Source: Pseudomonadota bacterium (GTDB lineage: Bacteria > Pseudomonadota > Gammaproteobacteria > Pseudomonadales > JADFDG01). From it: 64,000 nucleotides of DNA. Every line of letters begins with the position of its first letter. The stretch's first letter is position 1. Shown in pieces: positions 9,580 through 54,782 of this stretch. The notes under the pieces were generated by a model. That model did not search any database, was not told where the DNA came from, and worked only from the letters and a program-made list of their open reading frames with translations. The stretch is taken from the NCBI GenBank assembly GCA_049324495.1, contig JBMOOP010000128.1, forward strand, positions 10,797-74,796, written 5' to 3'. The position numbers and the translations under genes are program-made.

Positions 9580-9580
9580 A

Positions 9581-10687: not shown

Positions 10688-10705
10688 GGGTGTGCGGTGG
10701 CCAAC

Positions 10706-12553: not shown

Positions 12554-12557
12554 GGCG

Positions 12558-14162: not shown

Positions 14163-14284
14163 GCGACCAGGCTGAAGGCAAGCGCTTTGCGTTATGGCGC
14201 CCTGCCGGGAAAGACTGCGGAAGAGATGCATCAGGGGTCGCGGGGGAATTGTTGTGAACGATCGGGGCATTCTAGAAACCATGG

Positions 14285-30711: not shown

Positions 30712-31413
30712 TTACTGGCGGGTGATGGCCAGCAGGCTCGACGGCATCAGCATGGCGGTGCAGTGCGTGTCGAGGATGCCCAGGTGTTGCAGGCGCTCGT
30801 CCTGTACTGGCGGCAGCATCAGGTGACCGGGGGTCAGCGGCGCCAGTACCTGCAGGTTCACGACGCCTTTTTCCATGCCCTCGAAATCGTCCAGCAGGAT
30901 CACGGTCTCGCTGTGCATCAGGTCGCGTACCAGCGGCAGGTCTTCAGCCTGCAGCCGGCCATCAAGGGTCAGCAGGTCCGCCTTCACGCCGGCCTGCACG
31001 AGGCGGGAATACATCTGCGTCGATGTCTGCCCGGGATGCGGGTGGATGCGTACCGGGCCGATGGTGGCCGGCAGCGTGCACGGGTTGTCCTTGTCGACGG
31101 TGTACAGGTCCCGTTCCGCGCTGTCGTTCCAGCCGGCGCCGAGCGCCAGCGACGTCGTCGACTTGCCGAGGAAGGTGCCCAGTTCAACGGTGACCTTTGG
31201 CTTGAACGTGTTCGCCACCATGAACAGGAACACGCCGGCGGACAGCGAGATGCTGCCGGTGTTGTAGCCCATGCGGCTGCGGTGCGTTTCGAGTTCGCCG
31301 AATCGTGCGGTCAGTTCCGGTACGATGGTCGGCAGCATGTGGCCGTGCAGATCGATCATCCGTGCCTGCACGGCACGCGACAGGTTGGCGACATTCAGCG
31401 TGAACTTGTTCAT
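30712..31413 (-). CDS. Putative class I SAM-dependent methyltransferase (O-methyltransferase/Methyltransf_24-like)
   Basis: ATG at 31413 (MNKFTLNVANL...). It has a motif I-like VELGTFLGKSTTSLA, then DKD... and LLDDFEG blocks. The assignment is tentative. Confidence 0.55.
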   Translation of the reverse strand: MNKFTLNVANLSRAVQARMIDLHGHMLPTIVPELTARFGELETHRSRMGYNTGSISLSAGVFLFMVANTFKPKVTVELGTFLGKSTTSLALGAGWNDSAERDLYTVDKDNPCTLPATIGPVRIHPHPGQTSTQMYSRLVQAGVKADLLTLDGRLQAEDLPLVRDLMHSETVILLDDFEGMEKGVVNLQVLAPLTPGHLMLPPVQDERLQHLGILDTHCTAMLMPSSLLAITRQ

Positions 31414-31426
31414 GTTTTTCTTTTTT

Positions 31427-32200
31427 TCAGGGTTTCTGGATGACGTAGCACTGCTGGATGCCGAAGCCGCCACCGGAGAACTGGCGCTCGAGTTCGTAGA
31501 AAGCCTTGTTCACCGGGTTCGAATAGCCGGGCCAGTCCGCCGGGTTGGTAACCAGTTCGCGCAAGAAGCGGGAGCCGAGGTAGTAGACCGAGGAGAAATC
31601 GTCGCGGGTAAACTGCAGGCCCTTGCCGGCGAGGAAGGCGTCCATGCGCTCGATCTTGATGTAGCGGTTGAAGTCGTGCTCGACCAGCGATGGCAGCGAC
31701 TTCAGGGTCCGGATGGCATTGAGCAGGACCAGTGGTTCCCAGAATGCTTCGCACAGGATCACCTTGCCGCCCGGCCGGCATACCCGCAGGCATTCATCAA
31801 TGCCCTGTTGCTGCTCGGCCCAGGTCGGGAGATTGATCAGTACGCGGGTGGTGTAGACCACGTCGAAGGCGTTGTCCGGCAACTGGATGCTGCGCACGTC
31901 GCCCACCATCAGGCGCACGTTGCCGGGATTGCCCAGCTCCTTCAGCTTTGCCTGTGCCTGCTCGATCATCGGTGCGCTGAAATCGATGCCGGTAATCGTT
32001 GCTGGCCGGCGCTCCAGGTGATGGAACGTCGAGTAGCCGTTCGCGCAGCCGACGTCAAGGATCGCATCCCCTTCGCGGATATGCTTTCCGACGGACTCGA
32101 TCTCCAGGGCGATGGCGTACTTGTCACCCCAGCTGGCCGAGTGATCGGTCTGGAACTTTCGGGCCTGTGAATTCCAGAAGTCGAGAATGTGGTCTGACAT
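31427..32200 (-). CDS. Class I SAM-dependent methyltransferase
   Basis: ATG at 32200 (MSDHILDFWNSQ...). It has the clear motif I ILDVGCANGYST and post-I/II blocks (GIDFS, FDVVYTTRVL, CRPGGKVIL). Confidence 0.8.
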   Translation of the reverse strand: MSDHILDFWNSQARKFQTDHSASWGDKYAIALEIESVGKHIREGDAILDVGCANGYSTFHHLERRPATITGIDFSAPMIEQAQAKLKELGNPGNVRLMVGDVRSIQLPDNAFDVVYTTRVLINLPTWAEQQQGIDECLRVCRPGGKVILCEAFWEPLVLLNAIRTLKSLPSLVEHDFNRYIKIERMDAFLAGKGLQFTRDDFSSVYYLGSRFLRELVTNPADWPGYSNPVNKAFYELERQFSGGGFGIQQCYVIQKP

Positions 32201-32378
32201 GCGGGTCTCCGTCGATGCGCGAGGGCCGAAAGGTGACGATAAAAGCATGATCGCGCCACTCATGTCACCAGCATCTGCGCCGTGGTACTGTTCATTTCCT
32301 CACGCACTCCAGGGGCTGTGAAGTCGTCGACGACTCGCAAGTCCGGCAGGGGTCGGCCACCCGCAGGGTTGATCGCTC

Positions 32379-33536
32379 ATGGGCCAGAAAGGCAGTCAGG
32401 GTTCCCCCGTTCCGTTCAACCGGGTTCGCCTGACCGGGCGGGAGTTGTCGTATATCGAGCAGCTCATCCGTGGCGGTGGCACGCTGTCCGGTGATGGCCC
32501 CTATACCGCCCGCTGCAGCCGGCTGCTGGAGGCGATGACCACTTCCCCGCGCGCCCTGCTGACCCACTCCTGTACCGCGGCGCTGGAAATGGCGGCCCTC
32601 CTCGCCGAGCTGCAGCCCGGTGACGAGGTCATCATGCCCTCGTATACCTTCGTTTCGACGGCGAATGCTTTCGTGATGCGGGGTGCAGTACCGGTTTTTA
32701 TCGATGTGCGGCCGGACACGTTCAACCTTGACGAATCCTTGATCGAGGCGGCCATCACCCCGAGGACGCGCGCGATCTGTGCCGTGCATTACGCCGGTGT
32801 TGCCTGCGAGATGGACGCCATCATGGCGATCGCGCGGCGTCACGGGTTGCTGGTGATCGAGGATGCCGCGCAGGCGCTGGTCGCGCGTTACCGCGATCGT
32901 CCGCTCGGGTCGATCGGGGACTTCGGTTGCTTCAGTTTCCACGAAACGAAGAACCTGGTGTCGGGCGAGGGTGGGGCGCTGACGATCAATACGCCGGAAT
33001 TCACCGAGCGCGCGGAAATCATCCGCGAAAAGGGTACCAACCGCAGCCGGTTCTTTCGCGGCCAGGTCGACAAGTACACCTGGGTCGATATCGGCTCGTC
33101 CTACCTGCCGTCGGAACTCATTGCCGCATTTCTACTCGCCCAGCTGGAGGACGCATCGGCGCTCACCGCGGCCAGGCTGCAGGTATGGAATGCATGGCAC
33201 GAGGCGCTGGCGCCGCTGGAAGCCGACGGCCTGCTGCGCCGCCCGGTCATTCCGCCGCATTGCACGCACAACGGTCACATTTACTACGCCCTCGCCAGCA
33301 GCCTGGAAGCACGTGGTCAGGTCCTGGAAGCGCTGAAGGCCGGCGGCATTCACGCGGTATTCCACTACGTACCATTGCACTCGGCGCCGGCGGGGATGCG
33401 TTTTGGTCGGGTGCACGGCGACATGACGAATACGCTGGTTGCGGGTGACCGGTTGTTCCGGTTGCCGGTATGGGCCGGCCTCGACGCGGAAGTTGTGGGG
33501 CAGGGCGCCGACATCCTGCGCCGCGCGCTGGCCTGA
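32379..33536 (+). CDS. wecE: dTDP-4-amino-4,6-dideoxy-hexose transaminase (WecE/RffA-like, DegT/DnrJ/EryC1 family)
   Basis: It is collinear with the E. coli WecE sequence as I remember it: LLTHSCTAALEMAALLAELQPGDEVIMPSYTFVSTANAFV, VHYAGVACEMD, FSFHETKN (PLP lysine), EIIREKGTNRSRFFRGQVDKYTWVDIGSSYLPSEL, FHYVPLHSAPAG. Confidence 0.85.
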   Translation: MGQKGSQGSPVPFNRVRLTGRELSYIEQLIRGGGTLSGDGPYTARCSRLLEAMTTSPRALLTHSCTAALEMAALLAELQPGDEVIMPSYTFVSTANAFVMRGAVPVFIDVRPDTFNLDESLIEAAITPRTRAICAVHYAGVACEMDAIMAIARRHGLLVIEDAAQALVARYRDRPLGSIGDFGCFSFHETKNLVSGEGGALTINTPEFTERAEIIREKGTNRSRFFRGQVDKYTWVDIGSSYLPSELIAAFLLAQLEDASALTAARLQVWNAWHEALAPLEADGLLRRPVIPPHCTHNGHIYYALASSLEARGQVLEALKAGGIHAVFHYVPLHSAPAGMRFGRVHGDMTNTLVAGDRLFRLPVWAGLDAEVVGQGADILRRALA

Positions 33537-33552: not shown

Positions 33553-35340
33553 TCAGGGATAACCCTGCGCGCGCCGCTCGGCGATAACGGCCATGAAGTG
33601 ATCGGCAAAATCGCGCGCTGACTGCGATGGATTGCTCATCATCGCTTCCATGAATCGCTGTTCCGCATCGCCGACGGCTTTTGCGTAATCGCTGTCGTGC
33701 AGCAGGCGAGTGGCCCTGGCCACGTAGTCCTCGCTGTCGGTCGCGTGCTGGAACAGGATCGAGCCGTCCTTGTCGGCGAGAATTCCACGTGCCAGCGCGG
33801 TGTCTTCCGCCGTGCCCGTTTTGCCGTCGATCATCGACCAGAGAATGCGGTCGTAGGACGGGTCCTCGGACTGCGGATCGGCGGCCATGAACACCACCGG
33901 CGTGCCGGCCGCCATGGTGTCCAGCACGGTGAAGCCGCAGCCGAACGGGAAGGTGTCGAGGAAGACGTCCAGCACCTGCGCGTAGACCTTGATGTTGACC
34001 CAGCCAAGGAACCGCGTCTGGTCGATGACGCCGGCATCTCGGAAACGGCTGCTGATGTCGGCGGCCTCCTCGCGGCCGGTCCACAGGAATATTGCATCCC
34101 GATTTCGCTGGAGTATGGCGATGACGGCATCGAGGAACCGCGGGCTGCGGATGAGTTCGTGGCGCGCCAGCGTGCCGAGGATCTTCGCCGGCCGGTATTG
34201 CGCGACGATGGCGTCCGCCTCGGGACGCAGCGACGGATCGTAGCGCCCGGCAACCTGCAGCCGGCCGGCACGCCATACCCGGCCCTGCTTGACCTCGGTG
34301 CGTGAAAACGAGCCACTGGTGACATAGCCGTCGATCTCGTCGAAGCCGAGGCCGTGGTACTTCATGGACCACCAGATCTGCACTGGCGCGACGCGCATGG
34401 CGAACGCCAGCGGCATCATGATGGCCAGGCTGACCCAGACGAGACAGTTCACGCCATCGGTATGCAGCCGTTCGCGGAGGCGGGTCAGGCGCGTATAAAA
34501 ACTGTCCTTCGTTTCCGGGTACTCCTTGTCGAGGAGGATCACCGGGACGCCGATCTGCCGGAAGCGCTGCTGCATCGCGGCATCTTCGCCGCCGAAGCAG
34601 TAGATGACCGGGTCGAATGGCTTGTCGGCAAGTTGCTGGTAGCCGTCGAGCACATTGATGAGTGCCTCGATGTGCGCGAGCGTGCTGGCGTTGTGAATGA
34701 AGAACCCGATGCGCTGGCGTCCGCCCTCGACGGGTGCCGGCAGCGGTGGCAGACGGATGCGCAGGCGGCGCCCGGCGGCCAGCATGTCCGGGACCCACTC
34801 GTTGAGCTTGTCGCGGAAATGATCTTCCGTTTCGCGCTGTTTCACGAAGTGCTCGTAGCACTGCACTTCCAGTGCCAGCGCGTGGTCGAAGGCCCCTTGG
34901 GCGAGCGACCAGCGCAGCATGGGCAGCGCGCAGCCATAATGGATGCGCTCGAGCGTCTCGTAATCGTTGCTCTTGTGGAATCCCAGCGCATTGAGCAGCG
35001 GGAATATCAGGGAAAGCGTGTCCCGCACGGAGCGTCGGTCCACCAGTTTCTGCTGCAGGAGACTGATCAGCCCGGCATCAATCCTTCCGCAGACCCGTGC
35101 TGCCGTCGCGATGTTGGTCAGCAGGCTCGGCGACATGTCGCCGCGTTCCAGTGCGGCGAGCAACAACGGCAGGCCTGCAGCGGCGTTGCCGAGTTGCGTG
35201 TTGGCAACGCCAAGCAGGTGCAGTGCCTGCGGGTATACCGGGCTGGCCGGGGAAATCTCCCGGGCGATCGCGATGCCATCCGCGTTGCGCCCGGACTGGA
35301 TGGCGTGCATGGCCTGCTGGATGCGCGCGGCGTCGTCCAT
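33553..35340 (-). CDS. TPR-repeat protein with a C-terminal GT41 (O-GlcNAc transferase/SPINDLY-like) glycosyltransferase domain
   Basis: ATG at 35340 (MDDAARIQQAMHAIQSGR...). N-terminal TPR-like helices are followed by blocks matching the GT41 pattern: RIGFFIHNAS..., APVQIWWSMKYHGLG..DGYV, RSPRFLDAVIAILQRNRDAIFLWTG, RFLGWV....Y..VLDVFLDTFPFGCGFTVLDTMAAGTPVV. The Arg-rich extension of the ORF up to 35661 was rejected. Confidence 0.75.
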   Translation of the reverse strand: MDDAARIQQAMHAIQSGRNADGIAIAREISPASPVYPQALHLLGVANTQLGNAAAGLPLLLAALERGDMSPSLLTNIATAARVCGRIDAGLISLLQQKLVDRRSVRDTLSLIFPLLNALGFHKSNDYETLERIHYGCALPMLRWSLAQGAFDHALALEVQCYEHFVKQRETEDHFRDKLNEWVPDMLAAGRRLRIRLPPLPAPVEGGRQRIGFFIHNASTLAHIEALINVLDGYQQLADKPFDPVIYCFGGEDAAMQQRFRQIGVPVILLDKEYPETKDSFYTRLTRLRERLHTDGVNCLVWVSLAIMMPLAFAMRVAPVQIWWSMKYHGLGFDEIDGYVTSGSFSRTEVKQGRVWRAGRLQVAGRYDPSLRPEADAIVAQYRPAKILGTLARHELIRSPRFLDAVIAILQRNRDAIFLWTGREEAADISSRFRDAGVIDQTRFLGWVNIKVYAQVLDVFLDTFPFGCGFTVLDTMAAGTPVVFMAADPQSEDPSYDRILWSMIDGKTGTAEDTALARGILADKDGSILFQHATDSEDYVARATRLLHDSDYAKAVGDAEQRFMEAMMSNPSQSARDFADHFMAVIAERRAQGYP

Positions 35341-35381
35341 CGGGCTGGATTCCGTGACTGCGTTCGAACGAGGGTGCGGGT

Positions 35382-36074
35382 TCAGGACTGGAGCTTTCGC
35401 TCTTCCATGAACAGCAGGTGGTCGCGCTCGTCGGTCCAGACCTTCGCGTAGCCGCAATCCTGGTACGCGCTGTAGTACGGGCCGCCAAGCGTGTAGTGCA
35501 GGTTGGAAACCTGGTCGAGCGGGATTTCCGGGTCGTAGTCGACGAGGTGGTTCCAGCGGTGCGGGATCTCGCCGATCTCGTGGTCGCCGGCCAGCCACTT
35601 GAACTGGTGCAGTTCGAGGCCGCTGGCCTTGCTGACGTATTCCGGGGTGAGCGCGGTGCACTTCGCGCAGTTGAACAGCATCGCGCTCGACCAGTTTTTC
35701 TTTTCGTATTTTGTCTGCACTTCGCCCAGAAACTTGGTGCCTTCTTTTGGCTGATGCTGATGCTTGACAACCTGCACTGCATAGCGGTCATCACGCAGTG
35801 CCCAGAGTTTGGCGATGTCGTCGAGCATGACCATGTCGTTGTCGAAGAACAGCGCCCAGCCTTCGAAGTTGCACAGGAAGGGTGTCAGAAATCTTGAAAA
35901 CGAAAATTCGGTGGATTGCAGCGGGTTGATTTCTCGCCGCAAAAACTGTGACACGTACTCAATGTACAGTGGCGTGAAGGCAACCGGCTGCGAACTGCGG
36001 CGCATGATGCTGTGGGCGAACACGTCGTAGATCATGCCGGCGCGGCGGTCGTAGCCTATAAATACGCGGATCAT
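35382..36074 (-). CDS. Small GT-A fold glycosyltransferase (GT8-like, DxD motif)
   Basis: ATG at 36074 (MIRVFIGYDRR...), an ATGA overlap with the upstream gene. 230 aa with FDNDMVM (DxD) after a beta-strand-rich N-terminus, resembling small nucleotide-sugar transferases. Confidence 0.6.
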   Translation of the reverse strand: MIRVFIGYDRRAGMIYDVFAHSIMRRSSQPVAFTPLYIEYVSQFLRREINPLQSTEFSFSRFLTPFLCNFEGWALFFDNDMVMLDDIAKLWALRDDRYAVQVVKHQHQPKEGTKFLGEVQTKYEKKNWSSAMLFNCAKCTALTPEYVSKASGLELHQFKWLAGDHEIGEIPHRWNHLVDYDPEIPLDQVSNLHYTLGGPYYSAYQDCGYAKVWTDERDHLLFMEERKLQS

Positions 36075-37633
36075 GGGAATTTCCGTTGTTCTTGTTGTTC
36101 GTGGAACCTGCGATCGAACATCGAGAATACCCGAGGCTGCGGGTCCTTGGGCAGCCGTGCGGCGGCCTCGGCAATGACGGGCTCCCATTCGCCGCGCTGC
36201 CGGCAGCGCAGCAGGCGTGTACCCGGGTACCAGGGCACGGTTGCGCCCTCGTAACCCCAATACCAGGGCAGGCCCTTGTCGCGGTGCAGCAGCACCCAGA
36301 CCGGCCCGCCCAGGGCGCCGGCGAGATGCACGGTGCTGTTGCTGGTCGAGATCACCAGATCCAGCGCAGCGATTTGCGCAGCGAGCCCCTCGAGATCCCG
36401 GGTGGGATCAATGCCCGGGTCGCGGTAGATATCGATGCCGCTGCGTGCGCTGAAGGCATCGATCTCGGCGGCAGTGTCCCCGTACTGCAAGCTGAAAAAC
36501 TGCACGCCGGGCACCGATAACAGCGGCAGCAACCGATCCAGGGCCAGTGATTTGGCTTCACCGGTGGACGGATTGGCGCTGCGCCAGGAGATGCCAACCC
36601 GCAGCTTTCGGCCGAAGCGTTGCGCGTAATCCTGCGCCAGCGCCTCGCACCGTGCCGGATCGGGACGCAACCAGCCGGCCCGGATCGGGAAATCGCCGAT
36701 GCTGCGGCGGAACAGCCTTGGCAGATCGCCCATCAGGCACTGGCGCGCATAGCCGGCGCGGCGCGGGTCGTCTTCCGGGGTATCGCGCGGCACGAAGGCC
36801 AGCCCGGGCAGCGAGCGGGAAAACAGCGGCAGCAAACGCGCATCGCAATCGATCACGCTGTCGGCATGGCGCTGCTGCAGGTCGGCCAGCAAGCTGGAGT
36901 AAAGGAGTTCGTCGCCGATGCCCTGTTCTGCACGCACCAGCAGCTTGCCTTCGAACGGCTGGCCATCCCATAACCGGTCTTTCGGCAGGATCACCGGGCC
37001 GGGCACGAAGCGGGTGTTCCAGCGCGCACCGAAGCTGTCGAAGCCGGCAGCGAAATCGCCCGACTTCAGCCGGTGTTCCATCTGCATGTAACGCAACTCG
37101 GCATTGTCGGGAAATGCCGTGAGAGCCCTGGCGAGCGCAGCATCCGCACCTTCCCGATCGCCGCCATTGATCAGTAACGTAATCAACGATTCCCAGCTCT
37201 TGGGCAAATCGGGCCGGATCCGGATTGCCTTGCGCAGTGTGCGGATCGCGTCCTCGTCCTGCCCGAGCTGCGTGTGACAATACGCGAGATTGATCATGCT
37301 GAGCACATCGTTCGGCGCCCGCAGTTGATAGTGCTCCAGAATCGGCAGCGCGTCGGTGTAACGTGCCTGTTGCAGCAGGGCAAGCCCGATGTGATCGCCG
37401 AACAGTCGCTCAGGTGCGGCCTGCGCGGCGGCACGCCAGATATTTTCAGCGGCGCGCCAGTCACCCAGTTCCTCGGCGAGGCGCGCGTAGTCGATAAGCA
37501 ATTCAGGGGATGTCGCCAGCACCCGCAGTGCTTTGCGGTACAGCGGCTCGGCATCGCGCAGCATGCCCGCCTGGTGCAGTGATTTCGCGCGCTGCCACGC
37601 AGCGAGTGCAGCCTGCAGTGCGATCGGATTCAT
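36071..37633 (-). CDS. TPR + GT9-like (heptosyltransferase-fold) glycosyltransferase, paralogue A
   Basis: ATG at 37633 (MNPIALQAALAAWQRAK...), 520 aa. Shared blocks: WDGQPFEGKLLVRAEQGIGDE, VGISWRS, LQYGD, DLEGLAAQIAALDLVISTSNSTVHLAGALGGPVWVLL, WYWGYEGATVPWYPG. Confidence 0.7.
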   Translation of the reverse strand: MNPIALQAALAAWQRAKSLHQAGMLRDAEPLYRKALRVLATSPELLIDYARLAEELGDWRAAENIWRAAAQAAPERLFGDHIGLALLQQARYTDALPILEHYQLRAPNDVLSMINLAYCHTQLGQDEDAIRTLRKAIRIRPDLPKSWESLITLLINGGDREGADAALARALTAFPDNAELRYMQMEHRLKSGDFAAGFDSFGARWNTRFVPGPVILPKDRLWDGQPFEGKLLVRAEQGIGDELLYSSLLADLQQRHADSVIDCDARLLPLFSRSLPGLAFVPRDTPEDDPRRAGYARQCLMGDLPRLFRRSIGDFPIRAGWLRPDPARCEALAQDYAQRFGRKLRVGISWRSANPSTGEAKSLALDRLLPLLSVPGVQFFSLQYGDTAAEIDAFSARSGIDIYRDPGIDPTRDLEGLAAQIAALDLVISTSNSTVHLAGALGGPVWVLLHRDKGLPWYWGYEGATVPWYPGTRLLRCRQRGEWEPVIAEAAARLPKDPQPRVFSMFDRRFHEQQEQRKFP

Positions 37634-39147
37634 GGCCTGATCGCGAGTGTACGGGTGAGATCTGCGGCAACGTCGCCGGCCAATGCCCGCCAGTCGCGGC
37701 GCGGCGGCCCGCGAAACAGTCGCAGCGAACGGTACCAGGGCGCGCGCTCGCCGTCGTGGCCCCAGTACCAGAGCACGTAACGGCTGCCCGGGATCATCAC
37801 CCGGGTGGGACTGCCGAGGCCTCCAGCAAGATGCGCGGTGGTATTGCTGCAGGTGACAACGGCGTCGAGCGCGGCGATCAGCGCGCACAGGCCGTCGATA
37901 TCCTCGGTGCAGTCGAGGCCGGGTGCCACCTGCAGCACGAGGCCGGCGGCACCCAGTTGCGAGAGATCCGGCGCGATGTCGCCGTATTGCAGCGACACGC
38001 AGACGAAATCGTCATGCGAGAGCAGTGGCGCCAGGTCGGTCACCGGGATGCTCTTGCTGTCGCCGAGCAATGCACGGGCGCTGCGCCAGGACACCCCGAT
38101 CGCGCGGCGGCCGGGGAAATTCGTCGCCAGCCAGTCGCGCCAGTGCGCCACTTGCTGCGGGTCGGCGACCAGCCAGCTGATGCGCTCCGGCATGCGATCG
38201 ATGTCGCGGCGGAAATAGCGGCCGAGTTCCAGCCCGTCGATCTTGCGCGCGGCGGGATCGCGCGCGGCCCGCTCCAGCGCATCGGACTTGCGATCGGCAA
38301 ACTGCAGTGACGGGAACGAGCGACGATACAGCGGCAACAGTCGCGCATCGCAGTCGATCAGCGCGGGCTGGCCGATGCGCACCAGTTCCTCGTAAACGGA
38401 GGAGGCGAGCACCTGGTCGCCGAGGCCCTGCTCGGCGGTGACCAGCAGCGTGCCGTCGAAGCGCCGGCCATCCCAGGCCGGGCAGGGAAGCTGGGCGCCC
38501 TTGGGTTTTTCCAGCGACAGCGCCCAGCGGTGATGCATGTACTCGAAGCCGGTGGCGTAGTCGCCGGAGAGAAAACCGTGCTCGGAGCGGCCGGCGAGCA
38601 GCTGCGCATTCTGCGGCCAGTCGGCAAGCAGTTTCGGCATCCATTCGTCCAGTTCCCGGCGGCGACCGAGCCGCAGCAGTACCGACATCAGCAGCACGGC
38701 ATTCCGTTCAGATTTCGTGCCCTGGTAGATCTGGGTCATCAGGCGGACGGAACGGTCCTGCTGGCCGCACTTTTCCAGGCACCTCGACCAGGCCAGTGCG
38801 CAGTTCTCGTCGATATTGCCATCGGCACCGATCTGTTCGAGCAGCGGCAGTGCGTCGGCGTAGCGTTGCTGATTGAAGATGGCGAGTGCGAGCCGGGCAC
38901 GATGCCGGCCTGCATAAAGGGTGTCCGCGCGCCGCAGGATGCGCTCGGCGGCTACCCAATCGGCTGCTTCCATGGCCAGTTGCCCAAGCGCAGCCAAAAC
39001 CGGTTCGCTGTCGGGCGCAAGCGCGGCGGCCTGCTGGAATGCTTCCAGTGCGGTGACGAGATTGTGTGCGGCCAGTGCGGCCTGTCCCTGTGCCAGATGT
39101 TGTTGCGCGGCGGGAGACAGCGTTGTATTGGCGTTTTTTTCGCTCAC
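37630..39147 (-). CDS. TPR + GT9-like glycosyltransferase, paralogue B
   Basis: 505 aa. Shared blocks: WDGRRFDGTLLVTAEQGLGDQ, IGVSWRS, LQYGD, DIDGLCALIAALDAVVTCSNTTAHLAGGLGSP, WYWGHDGERAPWYRS. ATGA overlaps at both ends. Confidence 0.7.
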   Translation of the reverse strand: MSEKNANTTLSPAAQQHLAQGQAALAAHNLVTALEAFQQAAALAPDSEPVLAALGQLAMEAADWVAAERILRRADTLYAGRHRARLALAIFNQQRYADALPLLEQIGADGNIDENCALAWSRCLEKCGQQDRSVRLMTQIYQGTKSERNAVLLMSVLLRLGRRRELDEWMPKLLADWPQNAQLLAGRSEHGFLSGDYATGFEYMHHRWALSLEKPKGAQLPCPAWDGRRFDGTLLVTAEQGLGDQVLASSVYEELVRIGQPALIDCDARLLPLYRRSFPSLQFADRKSDALERAARDPAARKIDGLELGRYFRRDIDRMPERISWLVADPQQVAHWRDWLATNFPGRRAIGVSWRSARALLGDSKSIPVTDLAPLLSHDDFVCVSLQYGDIAPDLSQLGAAGLVLQVAPGLDCTEDIDGLCALIAALDAVVTCSNTTAHLAGGLGSPTRVMIPGSRYVLWYWGHDGERAPWYRSLRLFRGPPRRDWRALAGDVAADLTRTLAIRP

Positions 39148-40652
39148 GGCAGAAAAACTCCCGATGCATCACGGAGGCGTATTGCCAACGCCGTCCAGTC
39201 ATTGTCCGGCCCGTTGCGCCACAGGCGCAATGAGGGATACCAAGGCGTGCGCTCCACGTCATAACCCCAATACCAAAATATCGGCCGTGCATGTGGTAAC
39301 AGAACCTGGCAGGGCACTCCGCTCGCACCCGCGAGATGAACGGTGCTGTTGCTCACCGATACCAGGCCGTCGAGCGCACCCAGTTGCGCGAGTAAACCAT
39401 CGAGATCCTGGTACGCGTCGATGCTGTCATCGGTGACGGGTATCGGCAGGCCGGCACGGGCGAGCTCTGTGAGGTCATCGGACCTTTCACCATACTGCAC
39501 GTTGATGAATACCGTATTTTGTCGTGCCAGCAGTGGTGCCAGCGCGAGGACAGGGATCGATTTGCCTGGCCCATCGCTGAAGACCCGGTTACTGTGCCAG
39601 CTCAGGCCGACGATCTGGCGGCCGGGCCAGCGCAACCGGTAATCCTGGCGTATGCGGGCGACGCGTTCGGCGTCCGGTAACAACCAGGGTGCTTGAGGCG
39701 GCATGCGATCCTGGCACCGCAGGAAGCAGGCCAGATCCAACGACTTGATCCGCCGGAAGACAATGCCGCTGGCTGCGATACGGTCAAAATGGCCTTCCCA
39801 GCGCGGCAGAAAATCAATCTCTGGAAATGAGCGGCGAAACGCCGGAATCAGGCGCGGTTCGCATTCGACCAGGGTGCGCTGGCCCATGACGATGAGATCG
39901 CGGAACATGCACGAAGCGAGAATTTCTTCGCCGAGTCCCTGCTCCCCGGCGACCAGTAATGTGCCATCGAATTGCTTGCCGTCCCAATGGTGCGCTGGCA
40001 GTTTGCGGAAATCGGGGTGGTCATGGTCGTACCGGTGGCGTATCGCACGTTGAAAAGCGAAACCGCGTCCGAATGCGCCGCGTTTCAACAGATGTACGCC
40101 ACACAGCGACAACACGTCGGGGTTGTCGCTGTGGCGGACAATGGCGCTCTCGACGAGGGTATCGAGCTCTTCGCCGCGGCCGAGATTGAACAGGCTGTTG
40201 AGAACGATCTCCATGGACTTCGCATCCGGTGCGACTGACTCGAGACGGCGGCCGCAGGCCAGGGCGTCCTGCCAGTTTTTCAAGGCGCACGACACCAGAC
40301 CGAGAGCGAGAAGCACACCGCTATCGTCCGGTTGCCGCCTGAGATGGGCGTGAAAAAAAGGAACCGCTTCTGCGAAGCGCGCCTGCTTGAACAGTGCATA
40401 ACCCAGCCGCGCCTCGACGCCTGCGTCGGGACGCAACCCTATGATTTGGCGATAGAGCTTCTCGGTGGCCTGCCAATCATGCACCTGCTCGGCAAGGCGT
40501 GCGTATTCGGCAAGGATGGCGACATGATCCGGCAGCAATAAAAGTGCCTGCCGGTAGGATTCCGCTGCCAGTGCCAGTTCACCGCGTTCGTGCTGTTGCT
40601 GCGCTTGTTGGAAACGCCGCAATCCCCTCGCCACGCTCTGGGGGTTATTCAT
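39144..40652 (-). CDS. TPR + GT9-like glycosyltransferase, paralogue C
   Basis: 502 aa. Shared blocks: WDGKQFDGTLLVAGEQGLGEE, VGLSWHS, VQYGE, DLDGLLAQLGALDGLVSVSNSTVHLAGASGVP, WYWGYDVERTPWYPS. Confidence 0.7.
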   Translation of the reverse strand: MNNPQSVARGLRRFQQAQQQHERGELALAAESYRQALLLLPDHVAILAEYARLAEQVHDWQATEKLYRQIIGLRPDAGVEARLGYALFKQARFAEAVPFFHAHLRRQPDDSGVLLALGLVSCALKNWQDALACGRRLESVAPDAKSMEIVLNSLFNLGRGEELDTLVESAIVRHSDNPDVLSLCGVHLLKRGAFGRGFAFQRAIRHRYDHDHPDFRKLPAHHWDGKQFDGTLLVAGEQGLGEEILASCMFRDLIVMGQRTLVECEPRLIPAFRRSFPEIDFLPRWEGHFDRIAASGIVFRRIKSLDLACFLRCQDRMPPQAPWLLPDAERVARIRQDYRLRWPGRQIVGLSWHSNRVFSDGPGKSIPVLALAPLLARQNTVFINVQYGERSDDLTELARAGLPIPVTDDSIDAYQDLDGLLAQLGALDGLVSVSNSTVHLAGASGVPCQVLLPHARPIFWYWGYDVERTPWYPSLRLWRNGPDNDWTALAIRLRDASGVFLP

Positions 40653-42178
40653 GGGCGCAGGGTGACGAAATCGGCAAGGCGCGCGGCAGCGGTGTTCATC
40701 AGGACGCGCCAGTCGTCGTCGCAGGTGTTGCGCAGCAATTCCAGCGACGGATACCAGGGCGTACTGGTTCCCTGGTATCCCCAGTACCAGAGCACGGGCC
40801 GTATTTTTGGCAGTAGCACCAAACAGGTTATGCCCAGTGCGCCAGCGATATGAACCGTCGTGTTGCTGGTAGAAACGATGAGATCGAGCGCTGCAATCTG
40901 GGCGAACAGGCCATCGAGATCGTTGGTGGCATCGATCCGCGCATCGACGAAGATATCGCCCATGCCTGCCGCCCGTAGGCGGTTGATATCGTCTGCCACA
41001 TCGCCATACTGCACGTTGATGAACGCGGTGTTTGCAGTGCCCAGCAGAGGTTCGAAATTCTCAAGCCGGACATTTTTCATCGCGCCGCCTTCCATCACGC
41101 GCGTACTTTTCCAGCTCAGACCGATCAGCCGTCTGCCTGGCCAGCATTGCCGGTAATCGGCCCGTAGCGTGGCCGTGCGTTCGGCATCCGGCAGCAGCCA
41201 GGCGTGCCGATCCGGAAATTTTTCTTTGCCGTTGCGAAAAAAACCGACGAGATCGAGGCCGTTGATCCTGCGAAAGGAGCCGCCCTGGTTGAATGCCTCG
41301 ACCAGCTTCTTTTGGTGGCGTGGCACAAAGCGCAGACTCGGGAATGAGCGTGCGTAAACCGGAATCAGCCGCGTGTCGCATTCGACGATCGCAGCCTGAC
41401 CGAGGGCAACGAGGTCGGCAAATACCGACGAGACCATGATCTCGTCACCGAGCCCCTGCTCGGCGGTAACCAGCAGCGTACCGTCGAACGGTTTGCCATT
41501 CCATGGCTCACCGGGTGTGCCGGCATCCGGCGGTGTTTTGAGATTATGGCGCCAACGAAAATCGGCAAAATATGCAAAACCGTTTTCATAGTCGCCGGCT
41601 TTGAGCTTGTGCAGCGCATACATGGAACGAATTTCCGGACTTTCGGGGAAACGCCGCAGCGCATCGTTGATCAGCGCCTCAAGTTCGTCGGCGCGCGCCA
41701 GGTGAAAAAGCGCATTCAATACGGCATCGAGTACTTTTGCTTCGGGCTTTAATGCGTAGGCACGCCGGGCACAGGCGAGGCCGTCCTCCCAGCGTCCGCT
41801 GGCGCAATAACAGTTGCCGAGCGCATGGATGACATCGGCATCGGCAGGATTGCGCGCGATGTGTTTTTCCAGCCAGTCAATCGCTTCGCTGAAACGTTCC
41901 AGCCGAAACAGTGCGTGGCCGACATGGCCCTCGAAATTGGAATTCGGGCGCAGCGCGCCGATCCTGCGGAAAATTTTTTCCGCAGCCTGCCAGTCGGCAA
42001 CGTCTTCCGCAAGCCTGCCGTACTCGGCGAGCACGGCAGGATGATCCGGCATCAGCCCAAGAGCCTGCTGGTAGAGCGCCGCTGCTTTCGCGTGACTGCT
42101 GGCAGCGTGCTGTTGCCGGGCAGCTTCGAAAAGTTGCAGGCCTTTTATGATTGCCTGCGAATTATTGTTGTTCTGCAT
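40649..42178 (-). CDS. TPR + GT9-like glycosyltransferase, paralogue D
   Basis: 509 aa. Shared blocks: WNGKPFDGTLLVTAEQGLGDE, IGLSWKS, VQYGD, DLDGLFAQIAALDLIVSTSNTTVHIAGALGIT, WYWGYQGTSTPWYPS. It starts 27 nt after the aroG stop. Confidence 0.7.
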   Translation of the reverse strand: MQNNNNSQAIIKGLQLFEAARQQHAASSHAKAAALYQQALGLMPDHPAVLAEYGRLAEDVADWQAAEKIFRRIGALRPNSNFEGHVGHALFRLERFSEAIDWLEKHIARNPADADVIHALGNCYCASGRWEDGLACARRAYALKPEAKVLDAVLNALFHLARADELEALINDALRRFPESPEIRSMYALHKLKAGDYENGFAYFADFRWRHNLKTPPDAGTPGEPWNGKPFDGTLLVTAEQGLGDEIMVSSVFADLVALGQAAIVECDTRLIPVYARSFPSLRFVPRHQKKLVEAFNQGGSFRRINGLDLVGFFRNGKEKFPDRHAWLLPDAERTATLRADYRQCWPGRRLIGLSWKSTRVMEGGAMKNVRLENFEPLLGTANTAFINVQYGDVADDINRLRAAGMGDIFVDARIDATNDLDGLFAQIAALDLIVSTSNTTVHIAGALGITCLVLLPKIRPVLWYWGYQGTSTPWYPSLELLRNTCDDDWRVLMNTAAARLADFVTLRP

Positions 42179-42205: not shown

Positions 42206-43285
42206 TCAGGCGGGTTTTCCACGACGAGGCAACACGCTGCGCAGCTTGGTCGCCATGCTGCGTACCGCATCTTCCGTCATCGCCCAATCGATACAGCCGT
42301 CGGTGACGCTCTTGCCGTACTCAAGTTGAGTGAGATCTTTCGGAATTTTCTGGCTGCCGAATTGAAGGTGGCTCTCAACCATCATGCCGATGATCGAGCG
42401 GTTGCCTTCGACGATCTGGTTCGCGACGTTATCCATAACCAAGGGTTGCAGCGCCGGATCCTTGTTGGAGTTGGCATGGCTGGCATCGACCATGATGTTA
42501 CCGCTGACTTTCGCTTTTGCCAGCGCCTGTTCGGCGAGCGCGACACTCACCGAATCGTAGTTCGGCTTGCCGTTGCCGCCGCGCAGCACGACGTGCGCGT
42601 ACTTGTTGCCGGTCGTATGCACGATGCTCACCTGACCGTCACCGTTGATGCCGAGAAAGCTGTGCGGATGCGCCACGGACTGTAGGGCATTGGTGGCAAC
42701 CTCGAGGCCGCCGTCGGTGCCGTTCTTGAAACCGACCGGCGTCGACAGGCCCGAACTCATCTCGCGGTGGGTCTGCGATTCGGTGGTGCGCGCACCGATC
42801 GCGCTCCAGCTGATCAGATCCTGCAAGTACTGCGGGCTGATCGGATCGAGTGCCTCCGTGGCGGCGGGCAGGCCGAGCTCGGCGATGTCCAGCAGCAGGC
42901 GGCGGGAAATGTGCAGGCCGTCCTGGATGCGGAACGTGTCGTTCATGTACGGGTCGTTGATCAGCCCCTTCCAGCCGACCGTGGTGCGCGGCTTCTCGAA
43001 ATAAACACGCAGCACCAGATACAGCGTGTCCTGCACTTCTGCGGCCAGCGTCTTGAGCTTGCCGGCATATTCGAGCGCGGCTTTGGTATCGTGAATCGAG
43101 CAGGGGCCGATGACGATGAACAGACGCGGGTCACGACGATCGAGGATTGCCTTGATGGTTTCGCGACCGTTGTCGACGGTCTCGCGGGCTGGCGCCGAGA
43201 GTGGCAGCTCGTTGTGCAGTTGGCGCGGTGTGACCAGGGGTTCGATGGCGCGAACGTTGGCATTTTCGATCGGCTGCGTGGACAT
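42206..43285 (-). CDS. aroG: 3-deoxy-7-phosphoheptulonate (DAHP) synthase, class I
   Basis: 359 aa with conserved class I blocks (IVIGPCSIHD, RVYFEKPRTTVGWKGLINDP, GARTTESQ.HRE, KNGTDG, VMVESH). The isozyme (G/F/H) cannot be told from sequence alone. Confidence 0.92.
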   Translation of the reverse strand: MSTQPIENANVRAIEPLVTPRQLHNELPLSAPARETVDNGRETIKAILDRRDPRLFIVIGPCSIHDTKAALEYAGKLKTLAAEVQDTLYLVLRVYFEKPRTTVGWKGLINDPYMNDTFRIQDGLHISRRLLLDIAELGLPAATEALDPISPQYLQDLISWSAIGARTTESQTHREMSSGLSTPVGFKNGTDGGLEVATNALQSVAHPHSFLGINGDGQVSIVHTTGNKYAHVVLRGGNGKPNYDSVSVALAEQALAKAKVSGNIMVDASHANSNKDPALQPLVMDNVANQIVEGNRSIIGMMVESHLQFGSQKIPKDLTQLEYGKSVTDGCIDWAMTEDAVRSMATKLRSVLPRRGKPA

Positions 43286-43415: not shown

Positions 43416-44147
43416 TCACGGCTCATCTCGCTTTGCCGCCGGCGCCATCCGCTGTCCATCGATGCTGATGTCGGTCAGCAGCAGGCTGCCGCGTGCTGCC
43501 GGATTTTCCACATGCTCGAAACGCACCATGAACCAGTCCAGGGCCGGCGCCACCCAAACCCGGGTGCGCTTGAAGCGCTGTGGATAGCGCCGCTCGATGA
43601 CCCAGGTATCGAAGGTGCCGAGCGGGGTTTCGATTGTTTCCTGGCCTGTGACTGTGAAGTGCAGATTTTTGCGTTCGCCGCGATACAGGATGGGAAAGTC
43701 GAGGCTGCGGGCACCGTCGCGCAACCGGCAGCGTGCCAGCATCGCCATATTGAGGCCATCGAAAATTTCGCCGTCCAGCCTGATCTCGCGCTTCTGGTTG
43801 CCACGTGCCTCAATTGCCACGTGCCGCTGCCAGTCGAAAGTGATCGCGCTTTGCCGGTCGATGCCGAGACCGTGGAACTCATGCTGGTACTCATGCGCGA
43901 CGACCTTACAGTTCCGCCAGTCGAACCGCGATATTTCGCGATTTTTCAGAAATCGATTTTCAACCTGAAAATCGATTTCATGCTGCTCGCTACCGAGCGA
44001 ACGGATATTGACAGTGGCAGCCGTACCGGCCGGAATTCCGTTGACGACAATACGGTAACGCGCGTTCAGAGGCGAGAGTTCGGGCAGCGCGGCTCCTGCC
44101 GGTGCTGCCAGGAGCAGTATCAGCAGCAGGATGCAGCATGGCTTCAC
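43416..44147 (-). CDS. DUF3108-like secreted protein
   Basis: GTG start at 44147 (GTGA overlap with the upstream gene). It has a signal peptide (MKPCCILLLILLLAAPAGA). The beta-rich 243-aa protein resembles the DUF3108 family as I recall it. Confidence 0.55.
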   Translation of the reverse strand: MKPCCILLLILLLAAPAGAALPELSPLNARYRIVVNGIPAGTAATVNIRSLGSEQHEIDFQVENRFLKNREISRFDWRNCKVVAHEYQHEFHGLGIDRQSAITFDWQRHVAIEARGNQKREIRLDGEIFDGLNMAMLARCRLRDGARSLDFPILYRGERKNLHFTVTGQETIETPLGTFDTWVIERRYPQRFKRTRVWVAPALDWFMVRFEHVENPAARGSLLLTDISIDGQRMAPAAKRDEP

Positions 44148-45160
44148 ATATGCTCCTTGCGCTCACGGTAGTACGTGAACATTTCCTCAAGGCTGTAACG
44201 TGGTACGAAACCAAATGTTTTCCGGAACAGCGAACCGTCAATGACAACCGGAAATTTGAAGTAGTTTACCAGATACAGCGGGAACGATTTCCAGCCAAGC
44301 AGGCGGCTGATGGTTTTCGGGACATCGGTCGGGATCGAAGGAATCGGTATTTTGCGACAACCGCAGCGCGTCAGTGCCTGGCCGTAGGCTACCCAGTCGT
44401 CCGGAGAAACGTTGTAGATGCCAGGGCGATTCTTGCGGAATGCCACATCGACTGCGTCAGCCATGTCCTCCACATGCATGAACTGCATGATCGGCGAAAA
44501 TCCGATCAACCACGGCGCGTAATGGTTGCCGAGGATGCGACTCATCGTATTGTTGATGCCAGGGCCGATCACGTTGCACGGGCGCAAAATCGTCAAGTGC
44601 AGTTCGGGATGTTTCCACAGGAAAATGGTGGCGAGGTTTTCGAGTTCGACGGAATCGACAAGATCGCTGGCAATTTCTGTGGCCTTGAGCGGCGCGTTTT
44701 CTTCGATCAGCGCGGGGTTATAAGGGTGTGCGCCGTAAACATGATAGGTCGACATCACGATTACCTGGCCGACTCCGTATTTTACGCTCAGATCGAGCAG
44801 CTTCTGCGTACCGAGCACGTTTGCCGCATAGCGGCTGGCGCGATTGGCCTGCGAAGTGAGGATGCGGCCAAGATGGATCACGCCCATGGGACGATGGCGG
44901 CGGAATATATCTTCGAACTCGCGCCTGTTGAAATCGACCTTGTAGCCATGAACATCGCCACCGAGTTCCGGTTTGTGCCGAAAATCAACCGCGATCACCG
45001 TGTGGTCGCGGCGCAAACGGCGCACCACATGCTGGCCGAGCGCACCACCGGCACCGGTCACCATGACAGTCGGCCGCACTGTTTGATGCACGGCGGCGGG
45101 CGCAGTGCGGCGTGCCGACATGCTTTTCGGTGATTTCTCTCTGGATTTTTTGCTGTTCAT
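44144..45160 (-). CDS. NAD-dependent epimerase/dehydratase family protein (extended SDR)
   Basis: Rossmann motif VTGAGGALGQHVV after a basic N-terminal extension, plus a YGAHP/Y...K-like region. Confidence 0.8.
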   Translation of the reverse strand: MNSKKSREKSPKSMSARRTAPAAVHQTVRPTVMVTGAGGALGQHVVRRLRRDHTVIAVDFRHKPELGGDVHGYKVDFNRREFEDIFRRHRPMGVIHLGRILTSQANRASRYAANVLGTQKLLDLSVKYGVGQVIVMSTYHVYGAHPYNPALIEENAPLKATEIASDLVDSVELENLATIFLWKHPELHLTILRPCNVIGPGINNTMSRILGNHYAPWLIGFSPIMQFMHVEDMADAVDVAFRKNRPGIYNVSPDDWVAYGQALTRCGCRKIPIPSIPTDVPKTISRLLGWKSFPLYLVNYFKFPVVIDGSLFRKTFGFVPRYSLEEMFTYYRERKEHM

Positions 45161-48815: not shown

Positions 48816-49433
48816 GTGGAAATTCTTGCCCTTGACCTCGAAGGTGTTCTCGTCCCCGAGATATGGATCAATTTCGCGGAGCTGACGGGTATCCCCGAGC
48901 TGCGGGCCACCACCCGGGATATCCCCGACTACGACGTGCTGATGAAGCAGCGCCTGCGCATCCTTGCCGAGAAGAAGCTGGGCCTGCCGGATATCCAACA
49001 GGTCATCGACCGCATGGGGCCGCTGCCCGGCGCAGTCGAGTTCATGGATTGGGCACGGGATAACTTTCAGGTGGTCATCCTCTCGGACACCTTTTATGAA
49101 TTTGCCAAGCCGCTGATGCGCCAGCTCGGCCAGCCGACTCTGCTGTGCCACAGGCTGATCGTGGACGATCAGGGTTTCATCACCGATTACACCCTGCGCC
49201 AGAAGGATCCCAAGCGGCACTCGGTGAAGGCGTTCAAGTCGCTCAATTACCGCGTTATTGCCGCCGGCGACTCCTACAACGACACCACCATGCTCGCCGA
49301 AGCCGATACCGGCATCCTGTTTCATGCGCCAGAGAATGTGATTCGTGAGTTTCCGCAGTTTCCAGCTGTGCATACGTACGATGCGTTACGTACGATCATT
49401 GCCGCGTCAAGCAATCGTAATATATCCATTTAA
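48816..49433 (+). CDS. thrH: Phosphoserine phosphatase / homoserine phosphotransferase ThrH
   Basis: GTG start. (M)EILALDLEGVLVPEIWI...TTRDIPDYDVLMKQRLRIL...VVILSDTFYEF..PLMRQLG.PTLLCH...AAGDSYNDTTML...FHAPENVIREFPQFPAVHTY is near-collinear with P. aeruginosa ThrH as I recall it. Confidence 0.9.
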   Translation: MEILALDLEGVLVPEIWINFAELTGIPELRATTRDIPDYDVLMKQRLRILAEKKLGLPDIQQVIDRMGPLPGAVEFMDWARDNFQVVILSDTFYEFAKPLMRQLGQPTLLCHRLIVDDQGFITDYTLRQKDPKRHSVKAFKSLNYRVIAAGDSYNDTTMLAEADTGILFHAPENVIREFPQFPAVHTYDALRTIIAASSNRNISI

Positions 49434-50802: not shown

Positions 50803-50890
50803 GGGTTTCGGGTGGGTGCGGTGTTTTCCGCCTCCCCGCAGGGACGCATCCGGGTTTCCGCCGGGAGCCTATAACGAGAACAACAATCGG

Positions 50891-53614: not shown

Positions 53615-53724
53615 TGTGCTTTTCACGGGAGTACCGTTAGCCGGGCTTTATCTCAGGATTTGGCCGTTTCCGACCTAAACCTCAAAAAACAACAGCTGCA
53701 GAAGAAAGAAATCGGAGAAAGACA

Positions 53725-54579: not shown

Positions 54580-54586
54580 GGGCCCT

Positions 54587-54623
54587 GGGGGGCGGCGGGC
54601 GGGTCCTTCCGTCCGCCGCCCCT
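54587..54623 (+). terminator. GC-rich hairpin after filA paralogue 1 (attenuator or terminator)
   Basis: GGGGGGCGGCGGGCGGG-TCCTT-CCGTCCGCCGCCCC: a roughly 14-bp stem with one mismatch, starting 8 nt after the stop. There is no clear T-tract. Confidence 0.5.
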
Positions 54624-54782
54624 GTCATTCGTCGGCGGTTTGTCATTGTTCTGTACGTGAGTTAGGGGTTTCGTGTTAACTTCTGGTCGGGCAATGTCCT
54701 CGGGGCAGGGCCTCAATGAACAAAGAATGTGCATTTCAAAACAAAAAACGACAAGACCCCGCAAGGGGATAAGGAGAAGAAT

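Follow-up and report, generated by a model that had tools for sequence, protein, structure and literature searches.

What do four consecutive glycosyltransferase (GT) genes modify, when each also encodes tetratricopeptide repeats (TPR) and overlaps the next by a few nucleotides (nt)? This question is raised by a 64,000-nt stretch of DNA from a Pseudomonadota bacterium (Gammaproteobacteria; Pseudomonadales; JADFDG01), here called the window (GenBank assembly GCA_049324495.1, contig JBMOOP010000128.1, positions 10,797 to 74,796 of the forward strand). The genes, which we letter A to D in operon order, are consecutive open reading frames (ORFs) of the minus strand within 36071-42178 (Table 1). 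In the reading that we favor, with a probability of roughly 60%, they form, together with accessory glycosyltransferases, a co-translated set of four protein glycosyltransferases of the FlmG superfamily acting on cytoplasmic protein acceptors before export. The FlmG-type design, with TPR and a GT-B domain, is known; what is new here is a divergent gammaproteobacterial form of it that has four paralogs and is not linked to flagellin.

Four overlapping genes with one architecture

Each of the four proteins carries about 215 amino acids (aa) of TPR followed by a C-terminal domain of about 290 aa. TPR families exceeded the Pfam gathering score at residues ~10 to 205 in all four, and an NCBIfam scan gave weak TPR-type matches only. 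In a MAFFT alignment, B, C, and D were 38 to 49% identical to A over their whole length, and the 90 or more invariant columns lay mostly in the C-terminal half. The blocks common to the four proteins were W.G..F.G.LLV..EQG.G, G.SW.S, QYG, D..GL.A..ALD....SN.T.H.AG..G, and WYWG....PWY. The N-termini, read by eye from the translations with no predictor run, lacked a hydrophobic stretch resembling a signal peptide. Four such proteins in a row cannot be explained by chance.

All the junctions, including the one between D and the GT8-like gene downstream, are 4-nt stop/start overlaps. Three are ATGA (40649-40652, 37630-37633, and 36071-36074) and one is GTGA (39144-39147). A GGGAG sequence lies ~10 nt upstream of the GTG start of C, a start that is uncertain since the N-terminal ~30 to 45 residues of the predicted protein are not conserved among orthologs. 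The open frame of D reaches back to a GTG at 37888, and its orthologs align from residue 1 of the 520-aa form onward. A promoter and terminator scan of the window revealed nothing above shuffled controls.

An earlier note, made from the sequence alone, had described four consecutive minus-strand genes of 520, 505, 502, and 509 aa, each with TPR and a GT9-like domain, and the ORFs, the Pfam TPR matches, and the alignment bear this out. The C-terminal blocks that it quoted all recur, except that those attributed to a copy D belong to the 509-aa gene that opens the operon. It had given every junction as ATGA, which holds for three of the four, and the translational coupling that it proposed agrees with the tight overlap at all of them.

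A divergent GT9-like catalytic domain

Scans of Pfam and NCBIfam with the full proteins and with the isolated C-terminal domains of A to D returned TPR models only and none on the catalytic domain. The GT9 model PF01075, which the earlier note had expected to find alongside TPR, matched neither the full proteins (E ≤ 0.1) nor the isolated domains (E ≤ 10). Sequence searches of the PDB with a full protein or a full-length profile were swamped by TPR proteins, and the alignment was trimmed to the C-terminal domain. With the resulting profile of 24 sequences, the sole meaningful match among PDB sequences was the Escherichia coli heptosyltransferase II WaaF (1PSW, E = 0.0012). The N-terminal LLV..EQGLGDE block was placed opposite ILVIGPSWVGDMM, which has the GD motif, and D.DGLAAQ.AALD.VVS.SNTTVHLAGALG opposite LDQAVILIAACKAIVTNDSGLMHVAAAL, corresponding to the NDSG.MH.AAAL motif, in the correct order. 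The SN(S/T)T.H.AG..G block fell opposite NDSGLMHVAAAL of WaaF, so that the pairing with the heptosyltransferase DSG.MH block anticipated by the earlier note was recovered. An acidic residue and the histidine are retained in this alignment, and DSG is changed to SNT. In WaaC, we take D13 to be the catalytic base.

In the AlphaFold models, with a confidence (pLDDT) of 95.4 for full-length A and 90.9 for its C-terminal domain alone, ~12 helices of the TPR type precede two Rossmann-like halves. With the full-length model, Foldseek ranked SPINDLY and OGT at the top (E ~5e−11). This ranking was driven partly by the TPR region, and the C-terminal domain was therefore modeled separately. Its closest structures were then WaaF (1PSW, E = 4.8e−8), the Veillonella GT9 protein 3TOV (6e−7), WaaC (2H1H, 1.2e−4), and TibC (4RAP, 1.1e−3), and GT9 structures outranked most other GT-B families. 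Membership of GT41 was rejected, as no GT41 Pfam model matched and the isolated domain resembles GT9, not GT41, structures.

A top-scoring family member, P0256, matches PF01075 at 75 bits (gathering score, 22), and since A to D do not, their link to this model is only transitive. Another member is labeled "PilF/ADP-heptose:LPS heptosyltransferase" in JGI. On the strength of the WaaF profile match, the Foldseek ranking, P0256, and this label, the assignment of the catalytic domain of A to D to a divergent GT9-like GT-B glycosyltransferase domain, already made in the earlier note, is supported, although the formal PF01075 test failed. Residues that are invariant or nearly so in a set of 70 diverse family members, those of the C-terminal block for nucleotide-sugar binding among them, are all present in the four proteins. 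In B, a glutamate replaces the aspartate of the EQGLG(D/E)E motif, as it does in other members of the family.

Homology to the flagellin glycosyltransferase FlmG

The earlier note knew of no characterized member of this fusion family. This claim does not stand, since FlmG of Caulobacter crescentus has a matching architecture: of its 596 aa, the TPR (residues 1-313) bind flagellins and residues 309-596 form a GT-B domain, and the protein is necessary and sufficient for flagellin O-glycosylation with pseudaminic acid (Pse) (PMC7591256). The choice between Pse and legionaminic acid (Leg) is made by the C-terminal domain (bioRxiv 2022.03.25.485807). The FlmG class has been described as narrow and restricted to Caulobacterales (bioRxiv 2023.12.03.569772).

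The comparison of A to D with FlmG was made through an ortholog and not with the protein of C. crescentus. Primers published for flmG of this species were translated into MSRKSALESSA (N-terminus) and FQIPGVRWSGQDLRG (domain boundary), the second of which fits the family motif W.G..(F/L).G. Neither peptide had a match among 133 fetched proteins, and the locus L068 was located by scanning metagenome contigs with a degenerate DNA pattern for WSGQDLRG. Its ORF at 9347-11146 encodes 599 aa, begins with MSRKKALESSA, and contains FHIPGARWSGQDLRG, which amounts to 10/11 and 13/15 residues identical to the primer-derived peptides. The gene adjoins three flagellin genes, FlaF, and FlbT, as in the Caulobacter-type flagellin locus. 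Given the peptides and these neighbors, the ORF was taken as an FlmG ortholog. BLASTP aligned D with it over 532 columns (E = 1e−58, 30% identity) and A at E = 3e−50, in both cases through TPR and GT domains and with all the signature blocks included. Since the ortholog aligns in this way across both domains, A to D are, as judged from sequence homology, members of the FlmG superfamily.

FlmG (CCNA_01524 of C. crescentus; Bresu_2406 of Brevundimonas subvibrioides) and A to D share the N-terminal TPR, the C-terminal GT-B domain of ~290 aa, the cytoplasmic location, and the motifs W.G..L.G, AEQG.GDE, RL.P.F.RSFP, G..W.S, LQYGD, D...A..AA.DL.I..SN.T..LAGA.G.P, and PWYP. The TPR region is shorter in A to D (~215 aa) than in FlmG (~310 aa). 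Whereas FlmG is encoded by a single gene, the window has four coupled paralogs and a GT-A partner, and no flagellin, FlaF/FlbT, or Pse/Leg gene was found among its scanned ORFs. Its host is a gammaproteobacterium, in contrast to the restriction to Caulobacterales under which FlmG was described (bioRxiv 2023.12.03.569772).

Other known systems are more distant. In structure, the C-terminal domain comes closest to WaaC and WaaF (2H1H, 1PSW; Foldseek E = 4.8e−8 to 1e−4, TM score ~0.55 to 0.59). Unlike these enzymes, A to D have SN(T/S)T.H in place of DSG.MH, a fused N-terminal TPR region, and no gene context of the lipopolysaccharide (LPS) core, and their closest characterized relative has a protein acceptor. 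The heptosyltransferases of autotransporters, TibC and Aah (BAHT, 4RAP; E ~1e−3, TM ~0.5), have a GT9-like GT-B domain as well, and their protein substrate is glycosylated in the cytoplasm prior to its export. These enzymes have no TPR, assemble into iron-containing dodecamers, and are encoded beside their autotransporter substrate, and none of these features was seen for A to D. In OGT and SPINDLY (GT41), a TPR superhelix presents protein substrates to a GT-B domain, but this domain belongs to another GT-B family and the likeness to A to D is architectural and partly TPR-driven. Maf-1 of Shewanella oneidensis likewise has flagellin-binding TPR fused to a glycosyltransferase domain. Mafs have a GT-A catalytic domain (MAF_flag10), C-terminal TPR, and no sequence relationship to A to D. 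A single genome can encode Maf paralogs that differ in the sites they prefer (bioRxiv 2023.12.03.569772).

Orthologous arrays in related genomes

Related loci were found among genome contigs with the alignment of the four paralogs and were compared by tblastn of the window genes. These contigs belong to metagenome-assembled genomes (MAGs) of uncultured Gammaproteobacteria and Pseudomonadales (L001 to L006). The orthologs of A to D always lie between the gene of a 3-deoxy-D-arabino-heptulosonate 7-phosphate (DAHP) synthase and the GT8-like gene. L001, L002, and L006 have the layout of the window (DAHP synthase, A, B, C, D, and the GT8-like gene, with nfuA and metH further on), L005 is without B, and L003 is without B and C. 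Orthologs of A are 56 to 88% identical in L001 to L006, and those of B occur in L001, L002, and L006. The closest relative is L006 (uncultured bacterium s13_120; 88% identity), in which the orthologs of B and C are fused in frame (11527-14415) and the first ~45 residues of C are missing. The B/C junction fused in L006 is the only GTGA overlap of the window.

Copy number in this lineage varies from 3 to about 8. One to three extra paralogs surround the DAHP synthase gene in L001 (5983-9965), L002 (2695-9935), L005 (3984-6736), and L003, and two more lie in L007 (8336-11500), which has a fused ORF of two units and is on the same contig as L001, ~40 kb away from it. The uncharacterized window proteins at 46 to 62 kb had no homologs beside the extra paralogs of L007.

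A neighbor-joining (NJ) tree of the GT domains resolved A, B, C, and D as four orthologous groups. Cognate TPR domains are 51 to 95% identical between genomes, and paralogous TPR domains within the window only 24 to 44%, which argues that the TPR of each paralog is under purifying selection of its own. The paralogous catalytic domains of the window are 39 to 52% identical, above the TPR domains. Between the window and L006, the TPR of A is 95% identical and its catalytic domain 83%. The DNA identity among the four copies, in blocks 1505 to 1517 nt apart, is just 60 to 74%, too low for recent amplification or gene conversion. The old and maintained duplication put forward in the earlier note is supported by both this divergence and the conserved orthologous groups.

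Arrays and fusions across a large family

The profile of the catalytic domain matched 43,075 representatives of clusters at 50% identity with E ≤ 1e−3, of which 24,569 with E ≤ 1e−30, spread over many phyla; true WaaF-type enzymes score too weakly to enter this count. The best 150 of the 43,075 representatives (P0254 to P0403) all contain 2 to 6 catalytic units in 734 to 3140 aa, and the sequences of P0254, P0256, P0260, and P0301 consist of concatenated (TPR-GT)n units.

Multi-copy sets also occur in several organisms. The family has thus formed arrays repeatedly, contrary to the earlier note, which knew of no other four-gene array. In Ferrovibrio xuzhouensis KCTC 42182 (L008, 3658-13351), three copies are followed by a 277-aa flagellin, FlbT, FlaF, and a fourth copy. 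On plasmid p1 of Azospirillum brasilense MTCC4038 (L085, 10195-21213), a match to the flagellin C-terminus lies directly upstream of a frame of ~2036 aa with three units, and a convergent frame of 1237 aa holds two more catalytic units; the whole replicon has 12 family match sites by tblastn. The Azospirillum and Ralstonia plasmid records are unannotated and were analyzed by ORFs and hidden Markov models. Two family copies adjoin flagellin genes in a SAR116 MAG, and likewise two in a Gemmatimonadaceae MAG. In Allorhizobium taibaishanense (L010, 879-17819; NZ_MKIN01000022.1), a TPR-GT fusion of three units (1685 aa) and one single unit sit between a 1544-aa repeats-in-toxin (RTX)-type protein (Peptidase_M10_C) and an ABC transporter (C39 domain) and HlyD of a type I secretion system (T1SS). 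This locus points to a substrate of type I secretion among the acceptors of the family. We found nothing relevant in the literature on TPR and GT9 proteins with type I secretion or on Azospirillum flagellin in this connection. Members of the family are accompanied by flagellin in some cases, by a T1SS/RTX operon in one, and often by nothing obvious.

Neighboring genes

The genes that flank the array are listed in Table 1. In each of the five related MAG loci whose sequence continues beyond D, the GT8-like gene comes next, and its product is 79 to 89% identical in L001 to L006. The product is also 75% identical to that of a gene overlapping a member of the TPR-GT family in a Moraxellaceae MAG, although the identity of the TPR-GT proteins there is only ~30%, and 44% identical to that of a neighboring gene in L077. 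The GT8-like family itself exceeds 8000 clusters, mostly annotated as "hypothetical," and its conservation is unusually high, with ~65% identity across Azospirillum, Rhodospirillaceae, and Magnetovibrio. The idea that this gene is an obligate partner of the arrays was discarded, because the family is very large and its members also occur alone or in polysaccharide clusters; the gene is a frequent, non-obligate partner.

Table 1. Genes of the array, flanking genes of the window, and homologs of the GT8-like gene in other loci
Feature	Position	Strand	Description
DAHP synthase (AroF/G/H type)	42206-43285	-	Stop 27 nt before A; conserved upstream boundary, synteny in L001-L006
Paralog A	40649-42178	-	509 aa, ATG start; first in array; TPR ~1-215, GT9-like GT-B ~222-509
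Paralog B	39144-40652	-	502 aa, ATG start; TPR and GT9-like GT-B; ATGA overlap with A
Paralog C	37630-39147	-	505 aa from GTG 39147; TPR and GT9-like GT-B; GTGA overlap with B
Paralog D	36071-37633	-	520 aa from ATG 37633; ATGA overlaps with C upstream and with GT8-like gene downstream
GT8-like GT-A glycosyltransferase	35382-36074	-	230 aa, FFDNDM motif; Pfam Glyco_transf_8 E = 4.7e−4, below gathering score
GT4-like protein	33553-35340	-	595 aa from ATG 35340 (likely start); C-terminal Glyco_trans_1_4 domain
WecE-type dTDP-4-amino-4,6-dideoxyhexose transaminase	32379-33536	+	Convergent with operon; Pfam DegT 8.9e−84
SAM-methyltransferase-like gene	31427-32263	-	Pfam
SAM-methyltransferase-like gene	30712-31473	-	Pfam
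GT8-like homolog in L075	11515-12228		
GT8-like homolog in L077	9294-9992		

The N-terminal ~390 aa of the GT4-like protein match no family, and its gene had no true tblastn match in L001 to L006. The longest frame at this position (33553-35661) would encode 702 aa from a GTG start and overlap the GT8-like gene by 280 nt. The transaminase, the only aminotransferase among the window ORFs scanned, scored 564 bits with NCBIfam NF008687 (cutoff, 375) and 551 bits with TIGR02379, compared with 198 bits for PseC (cutoff, 423.5), and the enzyme may provide an amino-dideoxy sugar as a donor. The two genes resembling S-adenosylmethionine (SAM) methyltransferases probably encode tailoring enzymes, and they and the transaminase gene would be on transcripts other than that of the array. 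This part of the island is variable: L006 has different methyltransferase-like ORFs at the matching position, and the downstream part differs in the relatives.

The remark of the earlier note that no LPS-core, O-antigen, or capsule genes are adjacent was correct for Wzx, Wzy, ABC export, and LPS-core genes and missed the GT8-like, GT4-like, WecE-type, and methyltransferase genes that follow the array. Between 21.7 and 53.6 kb, and among the remaining ORFs scanned, there was no gene for Wzx/Wzy/Wzz, an ABC exporter, an initiating transferase, or the LPS core. The window ORFs scanned contained no PseI/LegI/NeuB-type gene, and the annotated neighborhood of the array contained no autotransporter gene. 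No gene of a heptose pathway was found near the array; the product of 44147-45160 is a generic epimerase, and 48816-49430 encodes ThrH. The other window ORFs scanned were housekeeping or uncharacterized genes (metH, nfuA, the aroG-type gene, a cbb3 oxidase, and others). Further along the window (50723-55622), a 963-aa protein with Calx-beta domains, conserved in L006, precedes a pair of DUF6160 paralogs of 284 and 297 aa that have 19 to 20% serine and threonine and N-termini resembling signal peptides; no link of these genes to the array was found.

Protein or polysaccharide acceptors

We propose that A to D would be cytoplasmic two-domain enzymes, in which the TPR solenoid binds a protein acceptor and the GT-B domain selects an activated sugar, by analogy with FlmG. 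Together with the GT8-like enzyme, they would be translated from one mRNA through the 4-nt overlaps and would jointly modify a single protein acceptor, or a few of them, ahead of export. The TPR of each paralog would determine which acceptor or site it recognizes, and/or the GT domain which donor it uses, and the GT-A and GT4 enzymes may extend the glycan afterwards. A protein acceptor is plausible, and we infer it as we infer the identity of the donor and the cooperation between copies. The fused B and C of L006 and the polyproteins of 2 to 6 units suggest that such units may work together.

Several observations weigh against this proposal. The nearest structural relatives of the catalytic domain act on LPS. 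When FliC of E. coli and a flagellin from an alphaproteobacterium served as tblastn queries, neither the window nor L001 to L007 gave a match. Pfam scans of the longer window ORFs revealed no flagellar family, and flagellar, T1SS, and nonulosonic-acid genes were not found in the window or the five syntenic MAG loci. Six solitary family members that we looked up had unrelated housekeeping contexts, and a homolog of the GT8-like gene lies in a polysaccharide cluster of S. meliloti pSymB that also holds KpsF, CMP-Kdo synthetase, and further GT genes. A to D are not FlmG orthologs, since they form a separate clade in the NJ tree of catalytic domains, with L068 and L049 far outside. In addition, L068 has an asparagine at the position of a family-invariant histidine (H443 in A) and is without the WYWG block; this histidine is invariant in 70 members of the subfamily of the window and is also present in the MH.AAAL motif of GT9. 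Because of these two differences, the donor chemistry of FlmG is not transferable to A to D, and the enzyme of L068 may use a different class of donor.

The missing flagellin gene, the S. meliloti homolog, and the LPS-directed relatives would suit a lipid-linked or an LPS or polysaccharide acceptor, as for canonical GT9 enzymes, with the TPR only scaffolding a complex and the locus forming a small surface-glycan island. The best matches of the catalytic domain in both structure and sequence are indeed the LPS heptosyltransferases WaaF and WaaC, the JGI name of one family member refers to such an enzyme, and the GT8-like, GT4-like, transaminase, and methyltransferase genes are sugar-pathway neighbors. 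Nevertheless, A and D are homologous over nearly their full length to the FlmG ortholog of a flagellin locus, the family recurs beside flagellin genes and a T1SS substrate operon, and the genes for export, initiation, and LPS-core synthesis were missing from the region scanned. The strong conservation of TPR among the orthologs of each paralog also fits the recognition of a specific partner, and we regard a lipid or polysaccharide acceptor as unlikely. Another arrangement of the set would have one or two catalytic copies, the rest being silent adaptors that recruit acceptors or regulate the active copy in the manner of GlfM/Maf-2. The glutamate of B falls in the EQGLGDE motif that is aligned with the catalytic GD of GT9, the translational coupling and the fused versions fit a hetero-oligomer, and a flagellin glycosyltransferase system dependent on an adaptor is known (bioRxiv 2023.12.03.569772). 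However, the change from aspartate to glutamate is conservative and shared with other family members, and the higher conservation of the paralogous C-terminal domains than of the TPR would be unexpected for decaying pseudo-enzymes. As all four copies retain the family-invariant residues, the pseudo-enzyme idea is disfavored, and we consider this arrangement very improbable.

For the set of protein glycosyltransferases that we favor, the single most likely acceptor is a flagellin encoded elsewhere in the genome, at somewhat less than even odds, and the main alternative is another exported protein, such as a T1SS substrate. Across the family, flagellin is probably one acceptor context and not the only one. 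The conservation of the GT9-type histidine and the WecE-type neighbor hint that the donor of A to D need not be a nonulosonic acid. A bolder and rather doubtful possibility is that the subfamily is not a flagellin system but one face of a widespread, unrecognized machinery for cytoplasmic protein glycosylation, in which a hetero-oligomeric line of TPR-GT9-like units, coupled here and fused elsewhere, with a small GT-A partner would glycosylate secreted proteins other than flagellin (T1SS/RTX-type adhesins, for instance) from donors that are not nonulosonic acids, such as heptose or 4-amino-4,6-dideoxyhexoses.

Implications

The window reveals neither a new mechanism nor an acceptor, and its own value is moderate; the picture at the level of the family is the more interesting by-product. 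The window is a clean natural case of four long-maintained, co-translated paralogs, each with its own conserved TPR, and the array would be useful for asking how acceptor and donor specificity is split among paralogous protein glycosyltransferases. Experiments could make use of Ferrovibrio xuzhouensis, a cultured organism with four copies at a flagellin locus. Within the family, only FlmG has been studied, and its design is far more common than the narrow class of Caulobacterales enzymes under which it was described (bioRxiv 2023.12.03.569772). The catalytic domain found here belongs to a large family, often arrayed or fused, for which neither Pfam nor NCBIfam has a model and which is under-annotated.

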